Positions 1-14,399 of a DNA stretch of 31,283 nt are shown in pieces. Source of the stretch: a virus (taxonomy: Duplodnaviria > Heunggongvirae > Uroviricota > Caudoviricetes). The notes below the pieces were generated by a model that was not told the DNA's origin, ran no database searches, and was given only the letters and a program-made list of their open reading frames with translations. The stretch's first letter is position 1. Every line of letters begins with the position of its first letter. The stretch is from IMG/VR virus record IMGVR_UViG_2579778786_000007, one strand, 5' to 3'. Made by a program: the position numbers and the translations under genes.

Positions 1-1032
1 TCAAAAACTTGCTATTGATGTTGGTAGTGTTGCCAGCGGATTAAACCGTAATGCAGTTTCCAGGTGATCCGGTGCCAGATGTGCGTAACGCATAGTCATT
101 TTTATATCGTGATGCCCGAGAATTTTTTGTAAGGCCAGGATATTTCCACCCGACATCATGAAGTGCGCCGCAAACGTATGGCGCAGAACGTGTGTCAGTT
201 GACCGCGAGGGAGCACGATAGACGTTTTTTCCATCACGGATAAAAATTGAAAATAGCAGTCTGTAAAGAAATTGAACCCATCAAGCGCCATGATCTCTTC
301 GTAAAGCTCTTTACTGATAGGGATGCTTCTGTTTTTCTTCCCCTTCGTTCTTACAAAGGTAATTCGGTATTTGGTCACCTGTGAGCGGGTAAGATTTACG
401 GCTTCACGCCAACGTGCGCCTGTGCTTAAGCATATCTTAACTACCAGTGCCAGAATTGGGTCCTGACGTTTGCAATCAGCCAGCAATTCAACAATCTGCT
501 CATGGGTAAGCCATGCCATCTCTTTTTCTGCGATGGTGAATTTTCGCATGTTCTCCAGTGGGTTCGGATACGACCATTCGCCCAGGCGGGATAGTTCGCT
601 AAAAACACTACTTAGATAGCTTTGCTCCAGGTTAATGGTGACCGGGCTTGCTCCTTTCTTCCATTTCTCGCTGAAGTAGATCTCACCTGTCAGGCGTTTA
701 TCTCGATAGTGGGCAAACATTTTAGATGTGAGATCAGTTGCAAGGGGATTGCCCAGAGCGTCAACCATCAGCAGCAATTTGTCATAGACATGCTGCCCAG
801 CAGTCAGTGATTTACCATGTAGTTTGAACCATAGCTCAACCACGTCTTTCAGTGTTCGACGATCCACTGATTCACCCAGCCAGGGCTTTGCTTCGGTTTC
901 TTCCATCGTGTGACGCTCAAAAGCCAGTGCTTCGCCTTTGGTGGCGAATTGTTTACGCACACGACGCCCACTACGTCCGGCGGGGTAACATTCGCAAAGC
1001 CATTTTCCTGTGGTGAGTTTTCGTACAGCCAT
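1..1032 (-). CDS. int: P2-type tyrosine integrase (site-specific recombinase)
   Basis: Minus-strand ORF ending with TGA at 1-3. C-terminal half carries the tyrosine-recombinase signature (LSTGARWREA, HVLRHTFAAHFM, MRYAHL). Start chosen at ATG 1032, preceded by GGAGGG, giving 343 aa close to P2 Int (337 aa, from memory); the ORF track extends to 1188. Confidence 0.85.
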   Translation of the reverse strand: MAVRKLTTGKWLCECYPAGRSGRRVRKQFATKGEALAFERHTMEETEAKPWLGESVDRRTLKDVVELWFKLHGKSLTAGQHVYDKLLLMVDALGNPLATDLTSKMFAHYRDKRLTGEIYFSEKWKKGASPVTINLEQSYLSSVFSELSRLGEWSYPNPLENMRKFTIAEKEMAWLTHEQIVELLADCKRQDPILALVVKICLSTGARWREAVNLTRSQVTKYRITFVRTKGKKNRSIPISKELYEEIMALDGFNFFTDCYFQFLSVMEKTSIVLPRGQLTHVLRHTFAAHFMMSGGNILALQKILGHHDIKMTMRYAHLAPDHLETALRFNPLATLPTSIASF

Positions 1033-1051
1033 AAAAAATGCCCTCCAATAG

Positions 1052-1071
1052 AGAGCATTTTTACTGTATGT
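1052..1071. promoter_or_regulatory. LexA-box-like palindrome (taCTGtatgtataacCAGtg) about 20 bp upstream of the int start
   Basis: CTG-N10-CAG spacing matches the SOS box consensus TACTGTATATATATACAGTA at about 16 of 20 positions; closely resembles the stronger box at 7286-7305. Confidence 0.3.
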
Positions 1072-1220
1072 ATAACCAGTGTCAATGTATGAAATCCTGC
1101 GACCATACATCTCACTGAAGCCATAATGAAGTAGGCTATTCTTTTTGCTATGTGAGCATGTAACTTTTGCGGTTAACCTGTGGCTCATTTTTATTTTAGG
1201 CGCAGATATAAAAGCAAAAG

Positions 1221-1412
1221 TTATCGTGAGTTTTTAGTACAGATTTTTTTGGATTTACTAATAGTTCCATCATTGCAAACGAATTTGCCATCAGAGGTAC
1301 AGTGAGAAACACCTCCCTTTTTCCCTGAGCAGGGATAATTTCTAGCATAGGTAGCTAGTGGGTTTAATAACAAAGAACATGACAAAACCACAAAAAATAC
1401 CTTACCAAGCAT
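1221..1412 (-). CDS. Small exported basic Cys-containing protein (63 aa), unknown function; possible lysogenic-conversion moron between cI and int
   Basis: Strong RBS (GGGAGG) 6 nt before the ATG; N-terminal hydrophobic signal-peptide-like segment ([23 protein letters not shown]); mature part Lys-rich with 4 Cys; locally AT-rich. Confidence 0.5.
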
Positions 1413-1427
1413 AATTTCCTCCCGGTA

Positions 1428-2003
1428 CTATTTAACATACTTGACTGTTAAGCTTATAATTTTACCAATTATTTCAATGTCTTCTATCTTGCATTCGAAG
1501 GCTCTGTTTCCACCCTCGACGAAGATTCTTCCACCGGGTAAACGAGTAATGTCACGGATCGTTATTTCGCCATCAATACTTATTACCCATTTACCATCAC
1601 GTATATCATCAAATTCCTTATCACAAATAAATTCAGAATTATTATCTGTGATTACAAAAAGATTCTTGAATGCCGACGGTAGAAATTCTCTATCGAAAAT
1701 ATAAAAACCGTCTTCACACAAGGCCCCATCAGATAATACATATTTAGCAACTTCCATAGTATTTGTATTACCTGAAGTTTGCTTTGAACCATGCCCGGTT
1801 GTGAGCCAATTAAGCGAGGTGCCTGTTTCAAGGGCGCACTGGATTACCCATTCTGCTGGGAATGAGTCACGCATGTAGCGTGTGGCGAGTGTACTTTTAG
1901 AGATTCCTAAATGATCGCACAACGCCTGTCGAGTCTTGAATCCATAAGCTTCTACCATGCGCTCTATAGCGCCTCGTCCGCCTTTCTCCAAATTCATGGT
2001 CAC
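1428..2003 (-). CDS. cI: Immunity repressor CI, phage-186 type (HTH DNA-binding)
   Basis: 191-aa ORF divergent from the Apl/CII genes; size matches 186 CI (about 192 aa) rather than P2 C (99 aa); N-terminal HTH-like segment (LCDHLGISKSTLATRYMR). Start is GTG 2003 or ATG 1997. Confidence 0.7.
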   Translation of the reverse strand: MTMNLEKGGRGAIERMVEAYGFKTRQALCDHLGISKSTLATRYMRDSFPAEWVIQCALETGTSLNWLTTGHGSKQTSGNTNTMEVAKYVLSDGALCEDGFYIFDREFLPSAFKNLFVITDNNSEFICDKEFDDIRDGKWVISIDGEITIRDITRLPGGRIFVEGGNRAFECKIEDIEIIGKIISLTVKYVK

Positions 2004-2021
2004 TCCAAGTGAACTTTTATC

Positions 2022-2050
2022 TTGACGATTTCACTGTGCGATCGTATGTT
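2022..2050 (+). promoter_or_regulatory. Candidate rightward early lytic promoter (pR-like): TTGACG-17 nt-TATGTT
   Basis: -35 TTGACG at 2022-2027, 17-nt spacer, -10 TATGTT at 2045-2050, in the cI/apl intergenic region; flanked by inverted GTGAAC (2010-2015) / GTTCAC (2057-2062) half-sites that could be operators. Confidence 0.4.
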
Positions 2051-2122
2051 TATGGTGTTCACAAAATACAAACGATCCGTATTCGTCCTGATTAATCATC
2101 ATTAAACGAGGAATGTTGCATC

Positions 2123-2344
2123 ATGAGACCTAACATTTCAATCACTCTTACCACGCCTCATGTGACTATTGAACGCTATAGCGAGCTGACAGGGCTATCC
2201 ATCGATACCATCAATGACATGTTGGCTGATGGACGCCTTATCCGTCACCGTCTGCGCAAAGATAAAAAACGCGAAAAAGTGATGATCAACATAGCAGCAA
2301 TGACCGTTGATGCGCTTTCAGAATGCAATCTAAACCTTAATTAG
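2123..2344 (+). CDS. Apl/Cox-position small HTH protein (excisionase/switch regulator-like)
   Basis: 73-aa ORF immediately right of the switch region, first gene of the rightward early operon; HTH-like stretch ([21 protein letters not shown]). Confidence 0.5.
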
Positions 2345-2376
2345 TTCGATTCTGAGATACATCAGAGGCATTGACC

Positions 2377-2886
2377 ATGTTTGATTACCAAGTTTCCAAA
2401 CATCCACATTTTGATGAAGCCTGTCGTGCATTCGCATTGCGCCACAACCTGGTGCAACTGGCAGAACGTGCTGGCATGAATGTGCAGATTCTGCGGAACA
2501 AGCTGAACCCAGCTCAACCTCATTTATTAACCGCACCAGAAATCTGGCTGCTTACCGATCTGACTGAAGATTCAACGCTGGTAGATGGTTTTCTGGCACA
2601 GATTCATTGTCTGCCATGTGTACCGATTAATGAGGTGGCAAAAGAGAAACTGCCACATTACGTCATGAGTGCAACCGCAGAGATCGGGCGTGTTGCTGCA
2701 GGTGCGGTATCTGGCGATGTAAAAACCTGTGCCGGTCGTCGTGATGCTATCAGCAGCATTAACTCTGTAACACGACTGATGGCGCTGGCGGCTGTTTCAT
2801 TGCAGGCCCGTTTACAGGCTAATCCTGCGATGGCGAGTGCAGTTGATACCGTGACTGGCCTCGGTGCTTCATTCGGTTTGCTGTGA
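2377..2886 (+). CDS. cII: CII-like lysogeny-establishment activator (phage 186 CII family)
   Basis: 169 aa from ATG 2377 (the ORF track uses TTG 2371); size and position match 186 CII; GAGG RBS 7 nt upstream. Confidence 0.6.
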
Positions 2887-2893
2887 GGTGCTT

Positions 2894-3094
2894 ATGCTGA
2901 CGAAAGAACCATCATTTGCATCGCTGCTGGTAAAACAAAGCCCGGCAATGCACTACGGTCACGGCTGGATCATGGGTGAGGATGGTAAACGCTGGCATCC
3001 GTGCCGTTCACAAGATGAATTGCTGGCAGAACTATCTACGAAAAAACGGGGGAACAAATGGCTATTGAAGGCACTGCGGCGACTGTTCCATTAA
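2894..3094 (+). CDS. Hypothetical early protein (Fil-position small ORF)
   Basis: ATG 2894 preceded by GAGGTG; small ORF after cII in the same orientation. Confidence 0.4.
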   Translation: MLTKEPSFASLLVKQSPAMHYGHGWIMGEDGKRWHPCRSQDELLAELSTKKRGNKWLLKALRRLFH

Positions 3095-3399
3095 GCCCCG
3101 GTGAACGCCTGAATGGACTTAATCACATTGCGGAATTAAGGGCGAAAGTTTTTGGCCTGAATATTGAGTCAGAGCTTGAGCGGTTTATTAAAGATATGCG
3201 TGATCCATGGGATATCAATAATGAACAAAATAAAAGGGCACTGGCTGCCATATTCTTTATGGCAAAAATTCCAGCTGAACGTCATAGCACCAGCATTAAT
3301 GAGCTGACCACTGACGAAAAGCGGGAGTTGATTAAAGCAATGAATCATTTTCGTGCAGTGGTGAGCTTATTTCCCAGACGGCTAACCATGCCGAATTAA
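3058..3399 (+). CDS. Hypothetical early protein (113 aa)
   Basis: ORF in the early operon; no recognisable motif. Confidence 0.45.
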   Translation: MAIEGTAATVPLSPGERLNGLNHIAELRAKVFGLNIESELERFIKDMRDPWDINNEQNKRALAAIFFMAKIPAERHSTSINELTTDEKRELIKAMNHFRAVVSLFPRRLTMPN

Positions 3400-3460
3400 C
3401 CAACTAATGAAATTAATGGCGTAAACCCGCCGGGCATCCCTTTATCTAAATTCAGGAGAA

Positions 3461-3700
3461 TTGATTATGCGTAATATTGAAATCCTCACGACTAAAACCG
3501 GACCGGATGACGCAGGGCTTAATATTTTACTGACAGAGGCTCGTCTGGAAGAACGCCGGGCAAGGGCTGAAGCAATGGCAGCTCGCCTTGATAGCCTGGC
3601 GTGTCATATCACATCCCGCCAGCTAAACCACGTCGAAGCAGCAGAACTGCTGCGTGTGACTGCTGAAGCAATCCAGAGCGAAGCGCAGGAGATCCACTAA
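3461..3700 (+). CDS. Hypothetical early protein (79 aa)
   Basis: AGGAG RBS upstream; stop overlaps the start of the next gene. Confidence 0.45.
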   Translation: MIMRNIEILTTKTGPDDAGLNILLTEARLEERRARAEAMAARLDSLACHITSRQLNHVEAAELLRVTAEAIQSEAQEIH

Positions 3701-3927
3701 TGGCTGATGCAATGGATCTCGTACAGCAGCGCGTTGAAGAAGAACGCCAGCGCCATATCCGTGCTGCCCGTGCCAAAACACCGGGCGTGTCTCGCGTGCT
3801 TTGTATTGAATGTGAAGCGCCAATTCCGCCAGCACGCCGCCGCGCCATTCCGGGTGTGCAGCTTTGCATTACCTGTCAGGAAATCGCAGAGCTGAAAGGC
3901 AAACATTACAACGGAGGTGTTGTATGA
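3700..3927 (+). CDS. TraR/DksA-family C4 zinc-finger protein
   Basis: 75 aa with CxxC...CxxC (CIECEAP...CITCQE), typical of phage TraR-like proteins. Confidence 0.7.
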   Translation: MADAMDLVQQRVEEERQRHIRAARAKTPGVSRVLCIECEAPIPPARRRAIPGVQLCITCQEIAELKGKHYNGGVV

Positions 3928-4781
3928 GCACCATCCTGAAATGGGCGGGAAATAAAACCGCCATTATGTCCGAACTGAAAAAACATCTTCCTGCTGGCCC
4001 GCGACTGGTTGAACCTTTCGCGGGGTCCTGTGCTGTGATGATGGAGACGGATTATCCCAGCTATCTGGTTGCGGATATTAATCCTGATTTAATCAACCTC
4101 TATAAAAAGGTTGCCGCTGATTGTGAATCGTTTATATCTCGCGCCAGAGTTTTATTTGAGATCGCAAACAGGGAGGTGGCTTATTACAACATAAGGCAGG
4201 AGTTTAATTACTCAACTGAAATTACTGATTTCATGAAAGCGGTATATTTCCTGTATCTCAATCGTCACGGTTACCGTGGTTTATGTCGCTATAACAAGAG
4301 CGGGCATTTCAACATTCCCTACGGTAATTATAAAAATCCGTATTTCCCTGAAAAAGAAATTCGCGCATTTGCAGAAAAGGCCCAGCGAGCAACGTTTATC
4401 TGCGCCAGCTTTGATGAAACGCTGGCGATGTTGAAGGCGGGAGATGTGGTGTATTGCGATCCGCCGTATGACGGTACGTTTTCCGGCTATCACACTGATG
4501 GTTTCACTGAAGATGACCAGTATCACCTGGCATCCGTTCTTGAACATCGGTCATCAGAAGGACATCCGGTCATTGTTTCTAACAGTGACACATCCCTGAT
4601 CCGTTCGCTGTATCGCAATTTTACTCACCACTATATCAAGGTAAAACGCAGCATCGGTGTGGCAGCTGGCGAGGGTAAATCAGCAACAGAAATCATTGCT
4701 GTTTCCGGGCCGCGCTGCTGGATGGGATTTGATTATTCGCGTGGCGTGGATAGTTCTGCCGTGTACGGAGTACGTGCATGA
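3924..4781 (+). CDS. dam: DNA N6-adenine methyltransferase (Dam-like)
   Basis: ATG 3924 with GGAGG 6 nt upstream, overlapping the TraR stop (ATGA); N-terminal ILKWAGNK AdoMet-binding motif and catalytic DPPY (CDPPYDGTF). Confidence 0.85.
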
Positions 4782-7192
4782 GTCATGCCGATATGAACAA
4801 CTGCTGCGGCTTTAACGAGGCTGCCGCAGCGTTCTCATGGAACAGCCCGAAAAAGGCCATTAACCCTTATCTGGACCCGGCGGAAGTTGCGCCGGTTTCT
4901 ACGCTTTCAAACCTGATCACTCTGTACGCTGCCGATAACGAGCAGGAACAGTTGCGCCGCGAGGCACTGAGTGATCAGGTCTGGGAGCGTTATTTCTTTA
5001 ATGAATCACGTGATCCTGTCCAGCGCGAAATGGAGCAGGATAAGCTCATTAGCCGGGCAAAGCTGGCGCATGAGCAGCAGCGTTTTAATTCAGACATGGT
5101 CATTCTGGCGGACGTCAACGCCCAGCCTTCCCATATCAGCAAGCCGCTGATGCAACGTATTGAATACTTCAGCAGCCTGGGCAGGCCAAAGGCTTATTCC
5201 CGCTATTTACGTGAGACGATTAAGCCATGTCTGGAACGACTGGAGCATGTACGCGACAGTCAGCTATCTGCATCTTTTCGCTTTATGGCAAGCCATGAAG
5301 GGCTGGACGGCCTGCTGATCCTGCCTGAAATGAGTCAGGATCAGGTGAAACGCCTGTCCACCTTGGTAGCTGCGCATATGAGTATGTGCCTTGATGCAGC
5401 TTGTGGTGATTTGTATGCCACCGATGACGTTAAGCCAGAAGAAATCCGCAAGACATGGGAAAAGGTGGCAGCGGAAACCCTGCGTCTGGATGTCATCCCG
5501 CCTGCGTTTGAGCAACTCCGTCGGAAAAGAAACCGCCGTAAACCCGTGCCCTATGAACTCATTCCGGGTTCGCTGGCGCGTATGCTGTGCGCCGACTGGT
5601 GGTATCGGAAATTGTGGAAGATGCGTTGCGAATGGCGGGAAGAGCAGTTGCGTGCTGTCTGCCTGGTCAGCAAAAAAGCATCTCCCTATGTCAGCTATGA
5701 AGCCGTGATGCATAAACGTGAGCAGCGCCGTAAGTCACTGGAGTTTTTCCGTTCTCATGAACTGGTGAACGAAGACGGAGACGCGCTGGATATGGAAGAT
5801 GTGGTAAACGCCAGCAGCAGCAACCCGGCGCATCGTCGCAATGAGATGATGGCCTGTGTTAAAGGTCTGGAGCTTATCGCGGAAATGCGCGGTGACTGCG
5901 CCGTTTTCTACACCATTACCTGTCCGTCACGTTTCCATTCCACGCTCAATAACGGCAGACCCAACCCGACATGGACAAATGCGACGGTAAGACAAAGCAG
6001 CGATTATCTGGTCGGTACGTTTGCTGCATTTCGTAAGGCGATGCACAAAGCCGGGTTGCGCTGGTATGGCGTGCGGGTGGCTGAGCCGCATCATGACGGC
6101 ACAGTTCACTGGCACCTGTTGTGTTTCATGCGCAAAAAAGACCGCCGCGCCATTACTGCATTGTTGCGTAAGTTTGCTATCCGTGAAGACCGTGAGGAGC
6201 TGGGCAATAACACGGGGCCGCGCTTTAAGTCTGAGCTGATTAACCCGCGAAAAGGAACGCCGACAAGCTACATCGCGAAATACATCAGTAAGAACATTGA
6301 TGGGCGTGGTCTGGCTGGCGAAATCAGCAAGGAAACGGGTAAATCCCTGCGTGATAACGCTGAATACGTTAATGCCTGGGCGTCTCTGCATCGTGTTCAG
6401 CAATTTCGCTTCTTTGGTATTCCGGGGCGTCAGGCGTACCGTGAATTGCGATTGCTGGCTGGTCAGGCGGCAAGGCAACAGGGTGACAAAAAAGCAGGTG
6501 CGCCGGTACTGGATAACCCGCGCCTTGATGCCATTCTGGCTGCTGCTGATGCTGGTTGTTTTGCCACCTACATTATGAAGCAGGGCGGCGTACTGGTTCC
6601 CCGCAAATATCACCTTATCAGAACAGCTTATGAAATTAACGAAGAGCCGACCGCCTATGGCGATCACGGTATTCGTATTTATGGCATCTGGTCACCCATT
6701 GCAGAGGGCAAGATTTGTACTCATGCAGTGAAGTGGAAAATGGTTCGTAAGGCCGTTGACGTTCAGGAGGCGGCAGCCGACCAGGGCGCTTGCGCCCCTT
6801 GGACTCGTGGCAATAACTGTCCCCTTGCTGAAAATTTGAACCAACAGGAGAAAGATAAATCAGCTGATGGGGACCCCAGAACGGACTTTACCCGCATGGA
6901 TGACAAGGAGTTGCACGATTACCTGCACAGTATGAACAAAAAGGAGCGCCGGGAACTGGCTGCAAGGTTACGTCTGGTGAAACCGAAACGGCGTAGAGAC
7001 TACAAACAGCGAATTACAGACCATCAACGACAGCAGCTCGTCTATGAACTGAAATCCAGAGGATTTGATGGCAGCGAGAAAGAGGTCGATTTACTCCTTC
7101 GCGGCGGCAGTATTCCGTCAGGAGCAGGCCTGCGTATCTTCTATCGGAACCAGCGTTTGCAGGAAGATGATAAGTGGCGGAACCTGTATTAA
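4778..7192 (+). CDS. A: Replication initiation protein A (rolling-circle replication endonuclease, P2 gpA family)
   Basis: 804-aa ORF, start overlapping the dam stop; size and position match gpA of P2/186. Confidence 0.85.
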
Positions 7193-7285
7193 TTACGCTG
7201 GTTAACAATTCGTGCTCTTAATAATACCAGGCATATCAAGCTGATAAGCGTAAAAAAAACGTTTTACATCAGTAAGATTATTATA

Positions 7286-7305
7286 TACTGTAAATATAAA
7301 CAGTG
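7286..7305. promoter_or_regulatory. LexA (SOS) box taCTGtaaatataaaCAGtg
   Basis: 17 of 20 matches to TACTGTATATATATACAGTA with correct CTG-N10-CAG spacing, in an AT-rich promoter-like region about 40 bp upstream of the orf62/DinI-like operon. Confidence 0.6.
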
Positions 7306-7346
7306 GTTATACATACAGTATTTCTTGTGGTGTCATAGGAGGAAAG

Positions 7347-7535
7347 ATGCAGGACTATTTTTTGGAGTCTTTGAAGCTCCAGCGCATTGATTTTTTTCTT
7401 AAGCTTGTAGCGGCTAGTGAGTGTAGTGATGAAGAGAAGGGGCTGGCTCTGCAGTGGGTTTCTGAATTGACTGATGAACTCATGGCAAAAATCAGAAGCC
7501 ACGAATACAACCGCTCAATGGATGTCATCAGCTGA
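7347..7535 (+). CDS. Small hypothetical protein (62 aa), first ORF of the putative SOS operon; possibly the N-terminal part of a split Tum-like gene
   Basis: Strong RBS AGGAGG 6 nt before the ATG; downstream frame overlaps the upstream-open frame of the DinI-like gene (7471-7535). Confidence 0.45.
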   Translation: MQDYFLESLKLQRIDFFLKLVAASECSDEEKGLALQWVSELTDELMAKIRSHEYNRSMDVIS

Positions 7536-7545
7536 GGTGACTTTT

Positions 7546-7779
7546 ATGCGCATTGAAATAATGATCGATAAAGAGCAGAAGATTAGCCAGTCTACCCTGG
7601 ACGCCCTTGAATCCGAGCTTTACCGCAATCTGCGCCCCCTGTATCCCAAAACGGTAATCCGTATCCGTAAAGGTAGCTCTAACGGTGTGGAACTGACCGG
7701 ACTGCAACTGGACGAAGAAAGAAAACAAGTGATGAAAATTATGCAGAAGGTGTGGGAAGACGACAGCTGGCTGCATTGA
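7546..7779 (+). CDS. DinI-family protein (phage 186 Tum antirepressor-like)
   Basis: 77 aa; MRIEI...DALESEL...WEDDSW aligns with E. coli DinI (MRIEV...DALAGEL...WESADDW); GAGGTG RBS; location after A matches the 186 SOS operon. Confidence 0.75.
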   Translation: MRIEIMIDKEQKISQSTLDALESELYRNLRPLYPKTVIRIRKGSSNGVELTGLQLDEERKQVMKIMQKVWEDDSWLH

Positions 7780-7892
7780 TTTTGTCAATAGACGCTTGTT
7801 TTTACTAATCAAAAAGGGTTACATATGAGTGAGAGGCGATGTCAATCGGATATCGCCTTGTTTTTTGTCAAGAAAAGAATAATAGGCTAAAA

Positions 7893-8570
7893 ATGAAAAT
7901 TAATAATGTAGCGTTACCAATATCTCTTGCTGTAATCCTAACTGGTTGCGTGCCACATGCTTCTAACCGAAATATCACTGCTATTGAAGTGGTGAAGCCT
8001 GCTATTGGGCAAAGTGCTACCGCCTACATGGGCGATCCCATTATCACATCTGCTACTGGATTTAAAACGGACGTACTAGAACTTGGTGCGGCTAATGGTG
8101 CATTGTCTTCTATCGCTGCTGGTACATATTGCAGTGAGGGGAATGGAATTTACCGCAATTATCATAACCCTCAAGCTGTTGCGTTAAAAAATCTCTATGG
8201 GCAAATCGGTAACTATGTTGATTATGTTAGTTACGATGCTGCAAAAAATGAGATATCACCGCCAAATGGTACTTCTTATACTGCATCAGAAATTTCTATC
8301 AAACGTGTTCCTGATGGGCTGTGTCGAGTTAGTAACTCATTGGTTAAGACTATCGAATACAATGGAAATGCAGGCGGTGTAATGAAGTTCACCTATCGTG
8401 AATTTGCAAACGATATGGCTCGTGCAGCATTTACAACAGATTTTTCTGTAGATTCTAAGGGAAGTGACGTTATCGCTTACAAAGGTGCCAAGTTCAAAGT
8501 GAACAAGGCTGATAACTCGTCTATTTCTTATACAATTATTTCTGGCTTTGACAAGGCTGTCACGTTCTAG
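7893..8570 (+). CDS. Predicted outer-membrane lipoprotein, unknown function (cargo gene)
   Basis: Signal peptide with lipobox (AVILTG|C) and no Asp at +2; AT-rich relative to the phage backbone; no recognisable catalytic motif. Confidence 0.6.
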   Translation: MKINNVALPISLAVILTGCVPHASNRNITAIEVVKPAIGQSATAYMGDPIITSATGFKTDVLELGAANGALSSIAAGTYCSEGNGIYRNYHNPQAVALKNLYGQIGNYVDYVSYDAAKNEISPPNGTSYTASEISIKRVPDGLCRVSNSLVKTIEYNGNAGGVMKFTYREFANDMARAAFTTDFSVDSKGSDVIAYKGAKFKVNKADNSSISYTIISGFDKAVTF

Positions 8571-8829: not shown

Positions 8830-10584
8830 GTGGCCTCAGTGGAACTGCAAGCAAATGCTCGAACCTTAACAAACGTGTTATCTGTAAATAAAAAATATAT
8901 AGTCCCTAGATTCCAAAGAGAATATTCTTGGGGGAAGGAACAAGTAAGTGAACTTTGGCATGATATAGTTTCCAATATTCATTACCAGGAGGATGGGCAG
9001 TATCAATATGATGAGTATTTCATCGGTGCTCTCGTTTTGGTCGGGCAGGAAACTAGCTCTGAGCTGATGATTGTAGATGGTCAACAACGTCTTACGACTC
9101 TTACTATATTGTTATCAGCATTATGTGATAAATTTAAGTTGATAAATGAGTTGGCTGTAGCTCAATCAATATATAATAATTATATATCTGGTATGGATGA
9201 CGATGGCAGACCTTTTTTTAAATTAGTTAATGAAACTCCTAAGCCATACTTTCAAAACAACATTCAGCATATTGATAAGAGAAATGAAGGACCGGAGTCC
9301 CTTGAAGAAAGAAACTTGCAATCTTCATATAATGATTTAACTGAGTATCTTTCAGAAGATAATCTTTGCCAGACATTAGGAGTAGATAGAGAGAAATTTA
9401 TCTACTTGGAAGCGTTGAAGGCTGTGCGGGATCAAGTTCTACGGTATCTGAAAGTGATTTATATTACAGTTAATGATGAAGATGAAGCTTATACAATCTT
9501 TGAAACTCTGAATGCTAGGGGATTAAACTTAAGTTATGTAGATCTTATAAAAAACAAATTATTTAAGAAACTGAATGGCACACATCCTGATGATGATGCA
9601 AAAACTAAATGGAATAAAATTAGGCAAATAATTGCTAGTCGTAATGGTGTCGGTTCTATCGAAACATTTATCCGTCATTGGTGGGTGTCAAAATATTCTT
9701 ATGTAAGTAGTGACACTCTTTATAAAGCTTTTCTGGATAAGTGGAAAAAAGGCGACATTGATGCTTCAGCGTTCATTGATGAGCTACTTTCAGATGCCGA
9801 GATATATGTGAAAATATCATCGCCTACAGAACAGGATTTTCCTGAACTGGAAATGAAACCAGTTTATCGAGGTTTGCAGGCATTAAGGCTGTTTAACATA
9901 TCTCAGAATAAACCATTTTTGTTATCTTTATTTAAGGCAAGAGCAAGAGGAACGCTAAAACTTGTTGATATGAATAATGCAGTGCTGTCAATTGAACGCT
10001 TTCATTTTATGTTTAATGCTATTTGTTCATTGCGACCATCAGGTATTGAAAGTGCGTATGCTAAAGCTGCTAGGGCTTTAGTGGATGAAGGTTCTACTAA
10101 AGCTAGTAATAGACAAGTAATAAAGTCTTTGCTTGAAATGTTGGTGAAGAGAAAACCAGACATTAATATGTTTGTTGAAAAGTTTGTTATGCTTAAATTT
10201 TCAAATCAAGAGTTGAAAAATAAAAGGTTGATTCAGTACATTTTTAATAGACTTGAGTTACATCACATGAAAACGGGGGAGTATATGCCTGATTCATTAA
10301 CATTAGAGCATATTCAGCCTCAGAGTGTGGGGGATTCTGAAGTATATAGCATGATAGGAAATTTATTACCACTTTCAAAAGAATTAAATGAAAAAGCTGG
10401 AAATAAGTCTGTTGTGGATAAGCTTGAAATTTATAAACAATCACAATATGCGCTAGTTAAAATTTTTATTGATGAATTTGAAAATAAATATCAAGGAGAA
10501 TGGACGCCCGATCATATGAGGTCAAGAGCTGCTGAACTAAGTATTTTATCGTATAATTCAGTATGGAAATTGGGGCGTGAGTAA
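8830..10584 (+). CDS. DUF262/DUF1524 two-domain nuclease, GmrSD-like (candidate type IV restriction / anti-phage defence protein)
   Basis: 584 aa. N-terminal DUF262/ParB-like motifs (PRFQREYSW; DGQQR at 9076-9090; FETLNARG); C-terminal DUF1524/His-Me-finger-like motifs (TLEHIQPQ about 10306-10320; GNLLPLSKELNEKAGNKS). Strongly AT-rich; GTG start. Confidence 0.75.
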   Translation: MASVELQANARTLTNVLSVNKKYIVPRFQREYSWGKEQVSELWHDIVSNIHYQEDGQYQYDEYFIGALVLVGQETSSELMIVDGQQRLTTLTILLSALCDKFKLINELAVAQSIYNNYISGMDDDGRPFFKLVNETPKPYFQNNIQHIDKRNEGPESLEERNLQSSYNDLTEYLSEDNLCQTLGVDREKFIYLEALKAVRDQVLRYLKVIYITVNDEDEAYTIFETLNARGLNLSYVDLIKNKLFKKLNGTHPDDDAKTKWNKIRQIIASRNGVGSIETFIRHWWVSKYSYVSSDTLYKAFLDKWKKGDIDASAFIDELLSDAEIYVKISSPTEQDFPELEMKPVYRGLQALRLFNISQNKPFLLSLFKARARGTLKLVDMNNAVLSIERFHFMFNAICSLRPSGIESAYAKAARALVDEGSTKASNRQVIKSLLEMLVKRKPDINMFVEKFVMLKFSNQELKNKRLIQYIFNRLELHHMKTGEYMPDSLTLEHIQPQSVGDSEVYSMIGNLLPLSKELNEKAGNKSVVDKLEIYKQSQYALVKIFIDEFENKYQGEWTPDHMRSRAAELSILSYNSVWKLGRE

Positions 10585-10610: not shown

Positions 10611-11657
10611 TCAAAAAGAATCGTTTGTGAAATTTAGGGAGTAGGCATCAAAGCGTATTGCTTCTTCGCCTAGCCAATAGTTAAGTTCTTGTAGCTGTTT
10701 CTGCAGGGGCATCAGTTCGTTGCGGACAAAAACACGACTAGCCTTCTCCACATCACCAAAGCCCCCAACATTATTAGGCATTATCCCCATCATTTGCGGC
10801 GGCACACGGTGTGCCGCCATCATGTCGTCCCGGCTCACGTTCTTGATATTCAGAAACTCATCCTTCGCCGCGACTTCTGACAACGGGATAATCTGAAGCC
10901 CGTCCTTTTTGCCGTTAGGAGAGTACATAAACAGGTTGCGGAAGTTGCCTGGCCCTTTGGCACTTTTCATTGCATTGCGGAGGTTGTTCACATCCTCCTG
11001 GTTCTGCGCGGCATCGGTCATGTACATGATGAAGCCTGCATGACTGCCGTTAATATAATACTTCCGGCGGAACAGCGTGGCGGACTCGTTGAGCAGGGCT
11101 GATGGAATGGCAGAAAGATAACCTGGCAGGCCGTAGATCTCCTGGTTGATGTCCGGTTCCATCAGATGAAAAATGCTGCCTTTCGTGAACTGATACGGCT
11201 GGGTTGTCATACCGTATTGCACAAACCAGTAGGTATCCAGGTCTAACCCGCGTCGGGTGTATTTTGCCAGAGCAGGCTCAAGGGCGATAACTTCACCGAA
11301 GCGGTTCGTGCGTTTCTCCAGGTAGGCGTTACCAAATACCAGATAGTCCTGCACAAAACGTGAAAAAGCCTGCTGGCTGAGCAGCGGGTGAGGGATGTAG
11401 GTACTGGTCAGAATGTTGCATTTCACCGCAATTGGTGAGCTGTGATGCACGGCGGCGCGGAAGGTTCGTGCCAGTCCGTCAAAGCTGACGGGCGGCTCAT
11501 ACCAGCGGTCCATCTGTACGCATTCCACATAGTCCAGCAGTTCTCGGCGGTCCAGAACAGGAACGGGATCGCCGAAGCTGAATGCTTCGGCTGTAGTCTG
11601 GCTTTTAAGCTGGATCTGTTTCGTCGCCGCAGCGCGGTTCTTCTTACTCTTTCCCAT
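10611..11657 (-). CDS. Q: Portal protein (P2 gpQ family)
   Basis: About 348 aa, minus strand, start ATG overlapping the P stop (TGATG); size and position match P2 Q. Confidence 0.9.
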   Translation of the reverse strand: MGKSKKNRAAATKQIQLKSQTTAEAFSFGDPVPVLDRRELLDYVECVQMDRWYEPPVSFDGLARTFRAAVHHSSPIAVKCNILTSTYIPHPLLSQQAFSRFVQDYLVFGNAYLEKRTNRFGEVIALEPALAKYTRRGLDLDTYWFVQYGMTTQPYQFTKGSIFHLMEPDINQEIYGLPGYLSAIPSALLNESATLFRRKYYINGSHAGFIMYMTDAAQNQEDVNNLRNAMKSAKGPGNFRNLFMYSPNGKKDGLQIIPLSEVAAKDEFLNIKNVSRDDMMAAHRVPPQMMGIMPNNVGGFGDVEKASRVFVRNELMPLQKQLQELNYWLGEEAIRFDAYSLNFTNDSF

Positions 11658-13252
11658 CAAAAAATCTCCACAATATTGCTGGTATTGGCGGATTCGCCCT
11701 GCAGCGGTTCGTTAAACAATGCGTGCATCGTTGCCCAGGCCAGATCGGCGTGGCTGGCTTCTTCGCTGCGGCTGGCTTCATAGGTCGGGCGGTTGCCGCT
11801 GGCGGTGGTTGCGCGACGGATTGCCATGAATGACTGCGCAATGTCGGTGTGTCCGGCGTCAAACTCCAGACGGCGGTGGCTGATAATGTCGTAGGCCTTG
11901 AGTACCAGAGCGTTTTTAACGTTGGGGTTGTAGACAAACTCCCGGACGGCTGGAAAAAACGCTTTCACGTTCTCGTAAACCCCGTGGCCGACACCTGTCG
12001 AGTCGATGCCGATGTAGGTCACGTTGTACTGCTCGGTCAGTTTTTTGATGGCGTCAGCCTGGGCGCGGAAGTCCATCCCGCGCCACTGGTGACGCTCAAG
12101 AATGCGGAACTTACCACCCGGCACGGCTGGCGGTGCCACCACCACGCATCCGGCACTGTCGCCGTTCTGCGTACCTTTTGCCGGGTCATAACCGATCCAC
12201 ACTTCGCGCCAGCCAAACGGGCGCAGGGCCAGTGCATGAAAGTCGGTCCAGACTTCCCAACTGTCCACCATGCACGCTTGCAGCTCGCTGAGCGGGAACA
12301 CGGACGCGAGATCGTCCACAAACTCACACATCAGCAGGTTCTGGTATTCGTCCGGGCTGTACTCCATGCGCAACTGGTCGAGGTCGAACAGGTTACAGCC
12401 GCCCCGCACCGCATCTTCCACGGTGACTATCTGGCGGTACTGCCCGTCTGCGCACAGCAGGCCGGGGGACAGATTGCTGTGGGACAGGTCGATGTCCACC
12501 TTATCGGCTTTGTTGCGCCCTCGGTTGAACAGCGCACCGGACCAGAACGGATAAGCACTGTGTGTCAGACTGGATGGTGTGGAAAAATAGGTCTGTCGCC
12601 ATTTTTTGTGAATAGCCATACCGGAAGCCACTTTGCGCAGCTCCTGGAATTTCGGTATCCAGAAATATTCATCCAGATACAGGTTGCCGTGGTAACTCTG
12701 GGCCGTGCGGGCATTGGTGCCGAGGAAGTAAAGCGTGGCCCCGTTAGGAAGCACCATCGGATCACCTTTCAGCTCCACCTCGACTTCTTTGGCGAAATCG
12801 ATGATGTACTGCTTAAAGACGTGAGCCTGTGCCTTACTGGCAGAAAGGAAAATCTGGTTACGTCCGGTAAGCAGGGCGTCAATCAGGGCTTCACGGGCAA
12901 AATAGAAGGTCGCGCCGATCTGGCGTGACTTTAGCAGGTTGCGGATGCGGTTGGTTTTTCCGGCTTCCCACCAGTGGCGCTGGTAGTTGAACATGGAGGA
13001 ATGGAAAATTTCTTCCAGCTTCTCAATCTGTTCATCGGTGAAAACATTCTTTTCAGGCTGACGGCGCGGGCCTTTGTTGCGGTTGGCGACGTTAGGGTTT
13101 AAGTCGGCTTCGTTGCCGCCATTGTTAAACTTGCCGATCCGCGCGTGGCGCTCAGACTGGCGCGCCAGCAGGTCAATCTCTTTGAAATCTTTCCCTTCTT
13201 TGTGCTCCTTCATAATGAGCTGGCAGTAGCGTGCGGCGGTGGTGAGCTGCAT
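11657..13252 (-). CDS. P: Terminase ATPase (large) subunit, P2 gpP family - the 531 codons downstream of an in-frame TGA
   Basis: Long minus-strand ORF divergent from O, with conserved terminase blocks; P2 gpP is about 590 aa, so the N-terminus is missing from this ORF. Confidence 0.85.
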   Translation of the reverse strand: MQLTTAARYCQLIMKEHKEGKDFKEIDLLARQSERHARIGKFNNGGNEADLNPNVANRNKGPRRQPEKNVFTDEQIEKLEEIFHSSMFNYQRHWWEAGKTNRIRNLLKSRQIGATFYFAREALIDALLTGRNQIFLSASKAQAHVFKQYIIDFAKEVEVELKGDPMVLPNGATLYFLGTNARTAQSYHGNLYLDEYFWIPKFQELRKVASGMAIHKKWRQTYFSTPSSLTHSAYPFWSGALFNRGRNKADKVDIDLSHSNLSPGLLCADGQYRQIVTVEDAVRGGCNLFDLDQLRMEYSPDEYQNLLMCEFVDDLASVFPLSELQACMVDSWEVWTDFHALALRPFGWREVWIGYDPAKGTQNGDSAGCVVVAPPAVPGGKFRILERHQWRGMDFRAQADAIKKLTEQYNVTYIGIDSTGVGHGVYENVKAFFPAVREFVYNPNVKNALVLKAYDIISHRRLEFDAGHTDIAQSFMAIRRATTASGNRPTYEASRSEEASHADLAWATMHALFNEPLQGESANTSNIVEIF

Positions 13253-13423
13253 CTGATCCAGCGGCCCATAGTCACCTCACTTGTCGCGTTTTTTCCAGCT
13301 GTGAACGGTTGCAACTTTCTCGCCCAGCATTTCAGCAATGCGGGCTACGCGGTATCCCTGAAAGTACAGCAGCATGGCCTGCCGACGGGGATCGAGATCT
13401 GCGGGTGTCAGTGTGGTGTTCAT
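11657..13423 (-). pseudogene. P: Terminase ATPase gene interrupted by an in-frame TGA (minus-strand codon at 13277-13279); 48-codon N-terminal fragment 13280-13423
   Basis: Minus-strand translation from ATG 13423 gives MNTTLTPADLDPRRQAMLLYFQGYRVARIAEMLGEKVATVHSWKKRDK, then TGA, then in the same frame GDYGPLDQ-MQLTT..., continuing into the 531-aa ORF. 48 + 1 + 8 + 531 is about 588 codons, the size of intact gpP. Confidence 0.5.
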
Positions 13424-13469
13424 GGCACAAACCTACAGCCTTGAATGAAGGCTTTCCCCGCCTGCGGTT

Positions 13470-13487
13470 TGTGTGGTTGTCGGTACA
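13470..13487. promoter_or_regulatory. TGT-N12-ACA dyad (Ogr-type late-promoter activator site) in the P/O divergent region
   Basis: TGTgtggttgtcggtACA, 79-96 bp upstream of the O start; P2 late promoters carry a TGT-N12-ACA element near -55. Confidence 0.45.
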
Positions 13488-13565
13488 AATACCGCGCATT
13501 GTTTCACTGCCCCCATCACCGCAACCATAAGGCTCCAGTAAGTTTTTTCTAACGGAGCACGGCTC

Positions 13566-14399
13566 ATGACAGTGAAAGCAAAGCGTTTTCGCATCGGGGT
13601 GGAAGGTGCCACCACCGACGGACGCGAAATCCAGCGTGAATGGCTGGAACAGATGGCAGCCAGCTACAACCCGGCGGTGTATACCGCGCTGATTAACCTT
13701 GAGCACATCAAGTCTTATCTGCCGGACAGCACCTTTAACCGCTACGGCAAGGTGACGGCGCTGTTTGCTGAAGAAATCACGGAAGGTCCGCTGGCAGGCA
13801 AGATGGCACTGTATGCCGACGTTGAGCCAACGGAGTCCCTGGTGGAACTGGTGAAAAAAGGCCAGAAATTATTCACCTCTATGGAAGTCAGCCCGAAGTT
13901 CGCTGATACGGGCAAAGCCTACCTGGTCGGCCTGGCTGCCACTGATGACCCTGCCAGTCTGGGTACGGAAATGCTGACATTCAGCGCCAGTGCAGCCCAT
14001 AACCCACTGGCAAACCGCAAGCAGAATCCTGCCAATCTCTTTACCGCTGCAGAGGAAACGGTGATCGAACTGGAAGAAATCCAGGACGATAAACCGTCCC
14101 TGTTTGCCCGTGTCACGGCGCTGTTTACCAAAAAAGAGCAGTCCGATGACGCCCGGTTCTCTGATGTGCATAAGGCCGTGGAGCTGGTCGCCACTGAGCA
14201 GCAGAACCTGAGCGCACGCACCGAAAAATCCCTGTCTGAGCAGGAAGAACGCCTGTCTGATCTGGAGACAGCCCTGCAGACACAGCAAACCGCCTTTAAC
14301 GAACTGGTGGACAAGCTGAGTCATGAAGACAGCCGCCAGGACTACCGCCAGCGTGCAACAGGCGGTAACGCCCCCGTTGACACTCTGACCAATTGCTGA
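13566..14399 (+). CDS. O: Capsid scaffolding protein (P2 gpO family)
   Basis: 277 aa, first gene of the rightward head operon; size and position match P2 O. Confidence 0.9.
   Translation: MTVKAKRFRIGVEGATTDGREIQREWLEQMAASYNPAVYTALINLEHIKSYLPDSTFNRYGKVTALFAEEITEGPLAGKMALYADVEPTESLVELVKKGQKLFTSMEVSPKFADTGKAYLVGLAATDDPASLGTEMLTFSASAAHNPLANRKQNPANLFTAAEETVIELEEIQDDKPSLFARVTALFTKKEQSDDARFSDVHKAVELVATEQQNLSARTEKSLSEQEERLSDLETALQTQQTAFNELVDKLSHEDSRQDYRQRATGGNAPVDTLTNC

Follow-up and report, generated by a model that had tools for sequence, protein, structure and literature searches.

The closest described counterparts of the gene studied here are the intact P2/186-type gpP large terminases, represented by WP_001098431.1 in E. 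coli HS and mip270_04 and by the allele in CP176890.1. We compared them with the P gene in a 31,283-nucleotide stretch of DNA, called the window throughout, which extends from the int stop codon to the ogr stop codon of a complete 186/P2-type prophage. The window gene has the same length and the same three domains as these intact alleles, occupies the same place between the portal gene Q and the scaffold gene O, and shares 99.8-99.94% nucleotide identity with them, but it has TGA where they have TGG at codon 49, which splits the frame into 48 and 531 residues.

Classical opal and amber mutants in late genes, which are conditional-lethal and, in the case of opal, often leaky, likewise have a stop codon, created by one base change, in an essential morphogenesis gene; unlike them, the window lesion arose, or was recorded, in a natural lysogen and not by laboratory selection. 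Prophage decay by point mutation likewise inactivates a gene required for lytic spread alone, and some other public copies of P contain similar lesions, namely TAG at the same codon, a frameshift in a G run (P0020) and a 5' truncation. Compared with such decay, the process has barely begun here, the stop being the sole lesion in about 42 genes and window P showing no further change from its intact parent allele. Large terminases without the helix-turn-helix (HTH) region are also found (P0144, P0192 and P0193, 35-41% identical); they start near the position of Met58 and retain both the ATPase and the nuclease domain. These lineages are distant and natively lack the HTH, whereas all close relatives of window P keep the HTH, Trp43 and Trp49.

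We interpret the window as probably carrying a recent single-base nonsense mutation, a G-to-A change at position 13277, in an otherwise undamaged 186/P2-type prophage, and assign this reading a probability of roughly 0.8. The event is of a known kind and not a new recoding mechanism, and under annotation rules the P gene is a pseudogene. Transitions from G:C to A:T are the commonest spontaneous change, a point in favour of a real mutation.

The sequence derives from an E. coli draft assembly (GCA_000503275.1; contig AYQK01000044.1, 39,098 bp), in which the window corresponds, from its coordinates, to approximately positions 4051-35333. A literature search turned up no paper that names the AYQK01 assembly. 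The prophage has a 186-type CI/Tum-like switch. It contains int, CI, Apl, CII, Fil, Dam, a replication endonuclease, a DinI-like gene and a cargo slot, as well as Q, P, O, N, M, L, lysis genes, tail genes, D and ogr. The gene order typical of gpP is present, with P divergent from O-N-M-L and portal Q next to it with overlapping stop and start codons. The closest whole relative is the prophage located between rcdA and ybjL in E. coli HS. The other 41 HS genes that match a window gene aligned over essentially their full length with 90-100% protein identity and no stops or gaps in any of these matched genes; the terminase alone carries a stop. The features of the locus are as follows.

11657..13423, minus strand: the whole P gene (P2 gpP-type large terminase, ATPase subunit), with 588 sense codons and one internal opal stop.
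13280..13423, minus strand: the N-terminal 48 codons, the HTH part of Terminase_5 (Pfam Terminase_5 covers residues 11-68).
13277..13279, minus strand: the in-frame TGA in place of the Trp49 codon TGG, with the mutated base at 13277.
13253..13276, minus strand: the eight codons GDYGPLDQ (gpP codons 50-57) from the stop to Met58, translated only after readthrough.
11657..13252, minus strand: the 531-aa ORF that begins at Met58 and contains both Terminase_6N (ATPase) and Terminase_6C (nuclease) in full.
10611..11657, minus strand: the portal gene Q, with a full-length match to portal proteins (Phage_portal).

The initial annotation had described a minus-strand ORF of 48 residues from an ATG at 13423, a TGA at 13277-13279 and continuation of the same frame into a 531-aa ORF, and we confirmed all of these coordinates. 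The N-terminal piece opens at ATG 13423-13421; beyond the TGA (13279-13277), the frame has no further stop until the TGA at 11659-11657, which overlaps the ATG of Q (11657-11655) as ATGA, and the first in-frame ATG past the internal stop lies at 13252-13250, codon 58. The uninterrupted frame of about 588 codons expected of a gpP-type TerL is therefore replaced by one with a TGA at codon 49, although the sense codons still total 588. This equals the length of the intact homologues (588 aa) and bears out the earlier estimate of an intact-sized gene. Codons 50-57 are the same in the aligned relatives. In the source assembly, the two pieces are called as separate genes of 48 and 531 aa.

With Trp49 restored, the 588-residue product contains the domain set of a gpP-type TerL: Terminase_5 at residues 11-68 (E = 3e-27), Terminase_6N (ATPase) at residues 162-382 (E = 3e-65) and Terminase_6C (RNaseH-like nuclease) at residues 410-571 (E = 2e-49). 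Because this restored product matches three Pfam families, the homology of P spans the stop, and the split frame is, judged from Pfam matches that extend across it, not a chance pattern of ORFs. The terminase N-terminus with an HTH-like segment that had been recognized earlier corresponds to the Terminase_5 match and to a weak match to Sigma70_r4_2 (residues 13-46); the 48-aa region also gave weak NCBIfam matches to small-terminase and IS630 HTH families. By the Pfam domain limits, the stop falls exactly where the HTH ends.

Several comparisons showed what codon 49 had been. The codon is TGG in three relatives (E. coli CFSAN064036, phage 500465-1 and phage Cartapus), and in a 241-nt alignment the codon-49 base was the window's sole difference from two of them. 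An intact allele in CP176890.1 (locus L142), which we located through the neighbouring portal protein, is identical to window P at 1766 of 1767 nt; the sole difference is at gene nt 147 (window 13277), where the coding strand reads G in CP176890.1 and A in the window (on the plus strand, C becomes T). Window P can therefore be described as an intact allele in circulation that has acquired one G-to-A transition, in agreement with the single change from TGG to TGA proposed initially. In the collection of complete E. coli genomes, the nearest P gene was that of strain mip270_04, with 4 nt differences consisting of the stop, two synonymous changes and one Ser/Ala change. Among 36 near-full-length relatives, each standing for one cluster at ≤50% identity, Trp49 is invariant (36/36) and Trp43 is kept in 35. 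The residue that the stop replaces in the window is thus the invariant tryptophan expected in the N-terminal domain of gpP, as the initial annotation had proposed; the motif given there was slightly off, the sequence being HSWKKRDKW and not HSWKRRDKW.

The TGA allele is rare. Searches with an exact 37-mer found no copy in GTDB species representatives, IMG/VR or JGI metagenome contigs. Nor did it occur at any of 1113 places in 1075 complete E. coli genomes or in plasmids (best match 70/71 in both, 71-nt query), or in 58 phage records (best match 380/381, 381-nt query). The exact 531-aa product of the window occurred on 1 contig from 1 source, compared with 53 contigs (NCBI, Logan, ENA) for the exact Trp-restored 588-aa protein. 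Complete IMG/VR copies of P encode 588 residues in 95 of 96 cases, and the exceptional copy has a rearranged 5' end. Among the copies listed from complete genomes, the frame was likewise uninterrupted. From these counts, we conclude that the TGA allele is a rare and very recent derivative that has undergone no further decay. Window P is thus both one nonsense change from an intact allele and the carrier of a rare allele.

The alternative that survives best, although we consider it unlikely, is an error of base calling or assembly, in which the strain truly has TGG and the consensus of a WGS draft of about 2013 miscalled one base in TGGGGT. Such an error would account for an allele that is a singleton, present on 1 contig from 1 source without any other occurrence in the collections, and that differs in just one base from an intact allele in circulation. 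However, a consensus seldom contains substitution errors, and faults in homopolymers are usually indels, as in P0020, and not G-to-A changes. The assembly also does not appear error-prone here, because the other matched genes of the 31-kb window have neither a stop nor a frameshift. Moreover, genuine stops at codon 49 exist in nature, as the same TAG allele was seen in two separate sequencing runs (L006/L009). The ends of several contigs from other assemblies one base ahead of the changed position might mark a troublesome site, but these cases were selected by the design of the look-up.

Seven of the contigs inspected end at gene nt 146, one base ahead of the mutated base, and one further contig ends at gene nt 144. 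Those ending at nt 146 come from assemblies with k = 31, 119 and 141. The nearness of these ends to the stop arises by construction, because the look-up picks those whose end falls within codon 49, but the clustering at nt 146 goes beyond this selection. We rejected an insertion or junction recurring at nt 146/147, as no 'AAGTG + non-G' was found in IMG/VR, GTDB representatives or JGI metagenomes. A physical DNA end (cos) near the site was also rejected, with no match to a P2/186 cos query sequence, and convergence of the assembly graph at k-1 caused by known polymorphism does not fit L013. Truncated copies are uncommon in complete genomes, with only 4 of 1089 E. coli records covering this region partially.

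A second alternative, which we regard as far less probable than a sequencing error, is that the split is tolerated or functional: the 48-aa HTH peptide and the Met58 protein would cooperate, or readthrough would suffice, so that DNA might still be packaged, and Trp49 stops would recur and persist as a means of turning the terminase down. If this were true, a tolerated Trp49 stop would mark a down-tuned, semi-domesticated prophage and not a dead one. The evidence in its favour includes other stops at this codon. The exact 48-aa N-terminal product was found on at least 23 contigs, and a true internal stop was present in 6 of the 24 of these contigs that we inspected: TGA in the window's source contig and TAG at codon 49 in the five others (SRR6006734, SRR26895020, SRR28760583, SRR8541321 and ENA scaffold ERZ28623126). 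The P genes of SRR6006734 and SRR26895020 are 1 nt apart. Overall, the six contigs represent at least 5 backgrounds, at least 4 of them carrying TAG, with P alleles 41-114 of 1767 nt apart and different neighbouring cargo genes. These data show that genuine Trp49 nonsense alleles arise repeatedly and that one of them lasted long enough to be sampled twice. A functional split would also be in line with the natural lack of Terminase_5 in three distant relatives and with the position of the stop exactly at the end of the HTH.

The control truncations argue against giving this codon a special status. Products ending at other codons were about equally frequent (Trp43*, 23 contigs; Lys48*, 19; Tyr52*, 27; Gln57*, 22; Gln59*, 25; Gln89*, 19; compared with 23 for Trp49*), and most of them were labelled partial. 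Likewise, 18 of the 24 inspected contigs with the 48-aa product were partials at contig ends. We therefore rejected a hotspot at codon 49; since the look-up finds only stops at this codon, the apparent recurrence is largely a matter of ascertainment. Codon 49 was neither TAG nor TGA in any of the 1113 copies from complete genomes, nor in the IMG/VR copies that were found, at least 120 in number. Every stop allele is itself rare and branches off an intact allele that is common (1 versus 53, 1 versus 95 and 1 versus 221 contigs for stop and intact parent), which led us to reject an inherited lineage with a functional stop; for the commonest allele, the 531-aa fragment was present on 46 contigs, a count that would favour tolerance, as against at least 1000 intact. 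Trp49 and its domain are also kept in all close relatives. The initial annotation had named homologues that start at the internal ATG and lack the N-terminus as evidence that would count against an interrupted gene, and such proteins do exist, in 3 of about 40 near-full-length relatives, all three of them distant (35-41% identity), and in no close relative.

Programmed recoding of the UGA, whether by selenocysteine, a dedicated suppressor or structure-stimulated readthrough, has a negligible probability: UGA is the leakiest E. coli stop and decoding by the near-cognate tRNA would put back the wild-type Trp, but the stop is kept in no relative, the sequence downstream of it is identical in TGG alleles, no Rfam family, SECIS included, matched within 12900-13600 (E up to 1), a 96-nt segment starting just ahead of the stop folded no better than shuffles (z = +0.61), and the window has no tRNA gene that could act as a suppressor.

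Returning to a recent nonsense mutation in P, we infer that most ribosomes would terminate after Lys48 and release the 48-residue HTH peptide, so that full-length terminase would largely be lost. The prophage is thus predicted to be either defective in packaging or strongly attenuated, while excision, replication, the building of capsids and tails, and lysis of the cell could still take place. Expression of portal Q may also fall by polarity, because Q lies downstream in the same transcription unit.

Some terminase function might persist by either of two routes. The stop lies in the context AAG UGA G, with Asp at -2; a G after UGA favours termination, UGA-G being a relatively good terminator, and natural isolates are generally less leaky at UGA than K-12. 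In K-12 BW25113, readthrough of a UGA reporter was approximately 2% at 37 C and approximately 4% at 25 C, and the mechanism was competition of Trp-tRNA(Trp) with RF2 (PMC10570021). Readthrough by this tRNA would restore the native Trp and could yield a few percent or less of the full-length protein. Alternatively, translation could restart at Met58 (AUG 13252), located 24 nt downstream. The resulting product, possibly the 531-aa ORF, would keep the ATPase and nuclease domains and would be missing the HTH.

Restart of terminating ribosomes at a nearby downstream AUG is classical reinitiation. The Terminase_5 module is missing in three, possibly four, of about 40 near-full-length relatives (35-41% identity) and in none of the close relatives; because three distant relatives are naturally without it, the core enzyme can exist without this module. 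For the N-terminal HTH domain of gpP, we found no solved structure and no specific paper.

With all modules and about 42 good genes, this prophage would be scored as intact by software and yet probably packages DNA inefficiently. Given poor packaging, an induced lysogen may lyse and yet release no infectious phage; nor could it act as a helper for P4-type satellites. The locus would offer a natural and simple test case for opal leakiness in an essential phage gene. Its value lies mainly in an annotation flag and in the experiments it suggests, and it raises no new biological question.

The same base change also alters a heptamer at 13278-13272, converting GGGGUGA to GAGGUGA, a stronger Shine-Dalgarno-like sequence. 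The heptamer is 19 nt from AUG 13252, too distant for normal use, and sits directly ahead of an out-of-frame AUG.

Besides the window, which has TGA at codon Trp49 of the terminase gene P, five further public contigs have a stop there, in each case TAG. They comprise 4 Logan run assemblies and 1 ENA metagenome scaffold. The positions at which TAG was read in these contigs are as follows:

3145-3147 in L006, L008, L009 and L010, TAG at the Trp49 codon
1002-1004 in L011, TAG at the Trp49 codon

The P alleles of the five contigs are 41-114 nt apart, with differing cargo neighbours. L006 and L009 represent one lineage, 1 nt apart, recovered in two separate runs.

Contigs originating from different samples and assemblers stop at gene nt 146 of P, 1 base short of the nucleotide that is changed in the window. 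The assemblies ending there were made with k = 31, 119, and 141, and the ends are located as follows (L155 being the same contig as L012):

3146 in L012, L013 and L014, contig end at gene nt 146
396 in L153, L154, L155 and L156, contig end at gene nt 146

Searches in three collections for a continuation past gene nt 146 other than the known one found none. These contig ends may be due to heterogeneity within the samples, to a difficult site, or to the way in which the look-up selects contigs.

Other copies of the gene show further lesions. In a protein relative from S. Typhi (P0020; SUI38549.1, 70 aa), the residues past Trp49 (VTMGRWIRC...) fit a one-G deletion in the TGGGGT run, which makes this G-run, at codons 49-50, the site of a frameshift in a further assembly as well. 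The sole broken copy of P among the IMG/VR copies (1/96) is that of L033 (IMGVR_UViG_2713896773_000017), where unrelated sequence takes the place of the 5′ end of the gene up to approximately codon 26:

roughly 140 nt upstream of the 6900-6925 match in L033, replacement of the P 5′ end

Comparison with the E. coli HS prophage revealed 100% protein identity across the early region, from int to a 243-aa ORF (window 1-8570), and 90-100% identity in the late genes (window 10611-31283). The block of P, the portal gene Q, and a GmrSD gene is nearest to other prophages (mip270_04 and CP176890.1). The window prophage is a recombinational mosaic. The cargo region contains the following genes:

7839-8570, plus strand, 243-aa ORF
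8830-10584, plus strand, GmrSD cargo gene, flanked by the DinI-like gene and Q

The cargo site between the DinI-like gene and Q is a typical P2 defence hotspot. The GmrSD gene encodes a type IV restriction-like protein, which matches Pfam GmrSD_N (1e-38) and GmrSD_C (1e-11) and the PADLOC candidate system HEC-06 (3.8e-90). It takes the place of an unrelated 463-aa hypothetical protein present at this location in the E. coli HS prophage. The 243-aa ORF is kept in E. coli HS (annotated there as 225 aa); this ORF gave no significant match in Pfam, PADLOC, or NCBIfam. In the relative L144 (GCA_029887975.2, 3675-5421), the GmrSD gene is broken into two ORFs of 299 and 290 aa, so that the defence gene itself is probably a pseudogene in that genome.

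In the RefSeq record of phage 500465-1 (L002; NC_049342.1, 4824-6381), the annotation divides the Q region into a 531-nt "terminase large subunit" and, apart from it, a "portal protein", suggesting that the portal gene is disrupted or mis-annotated there.
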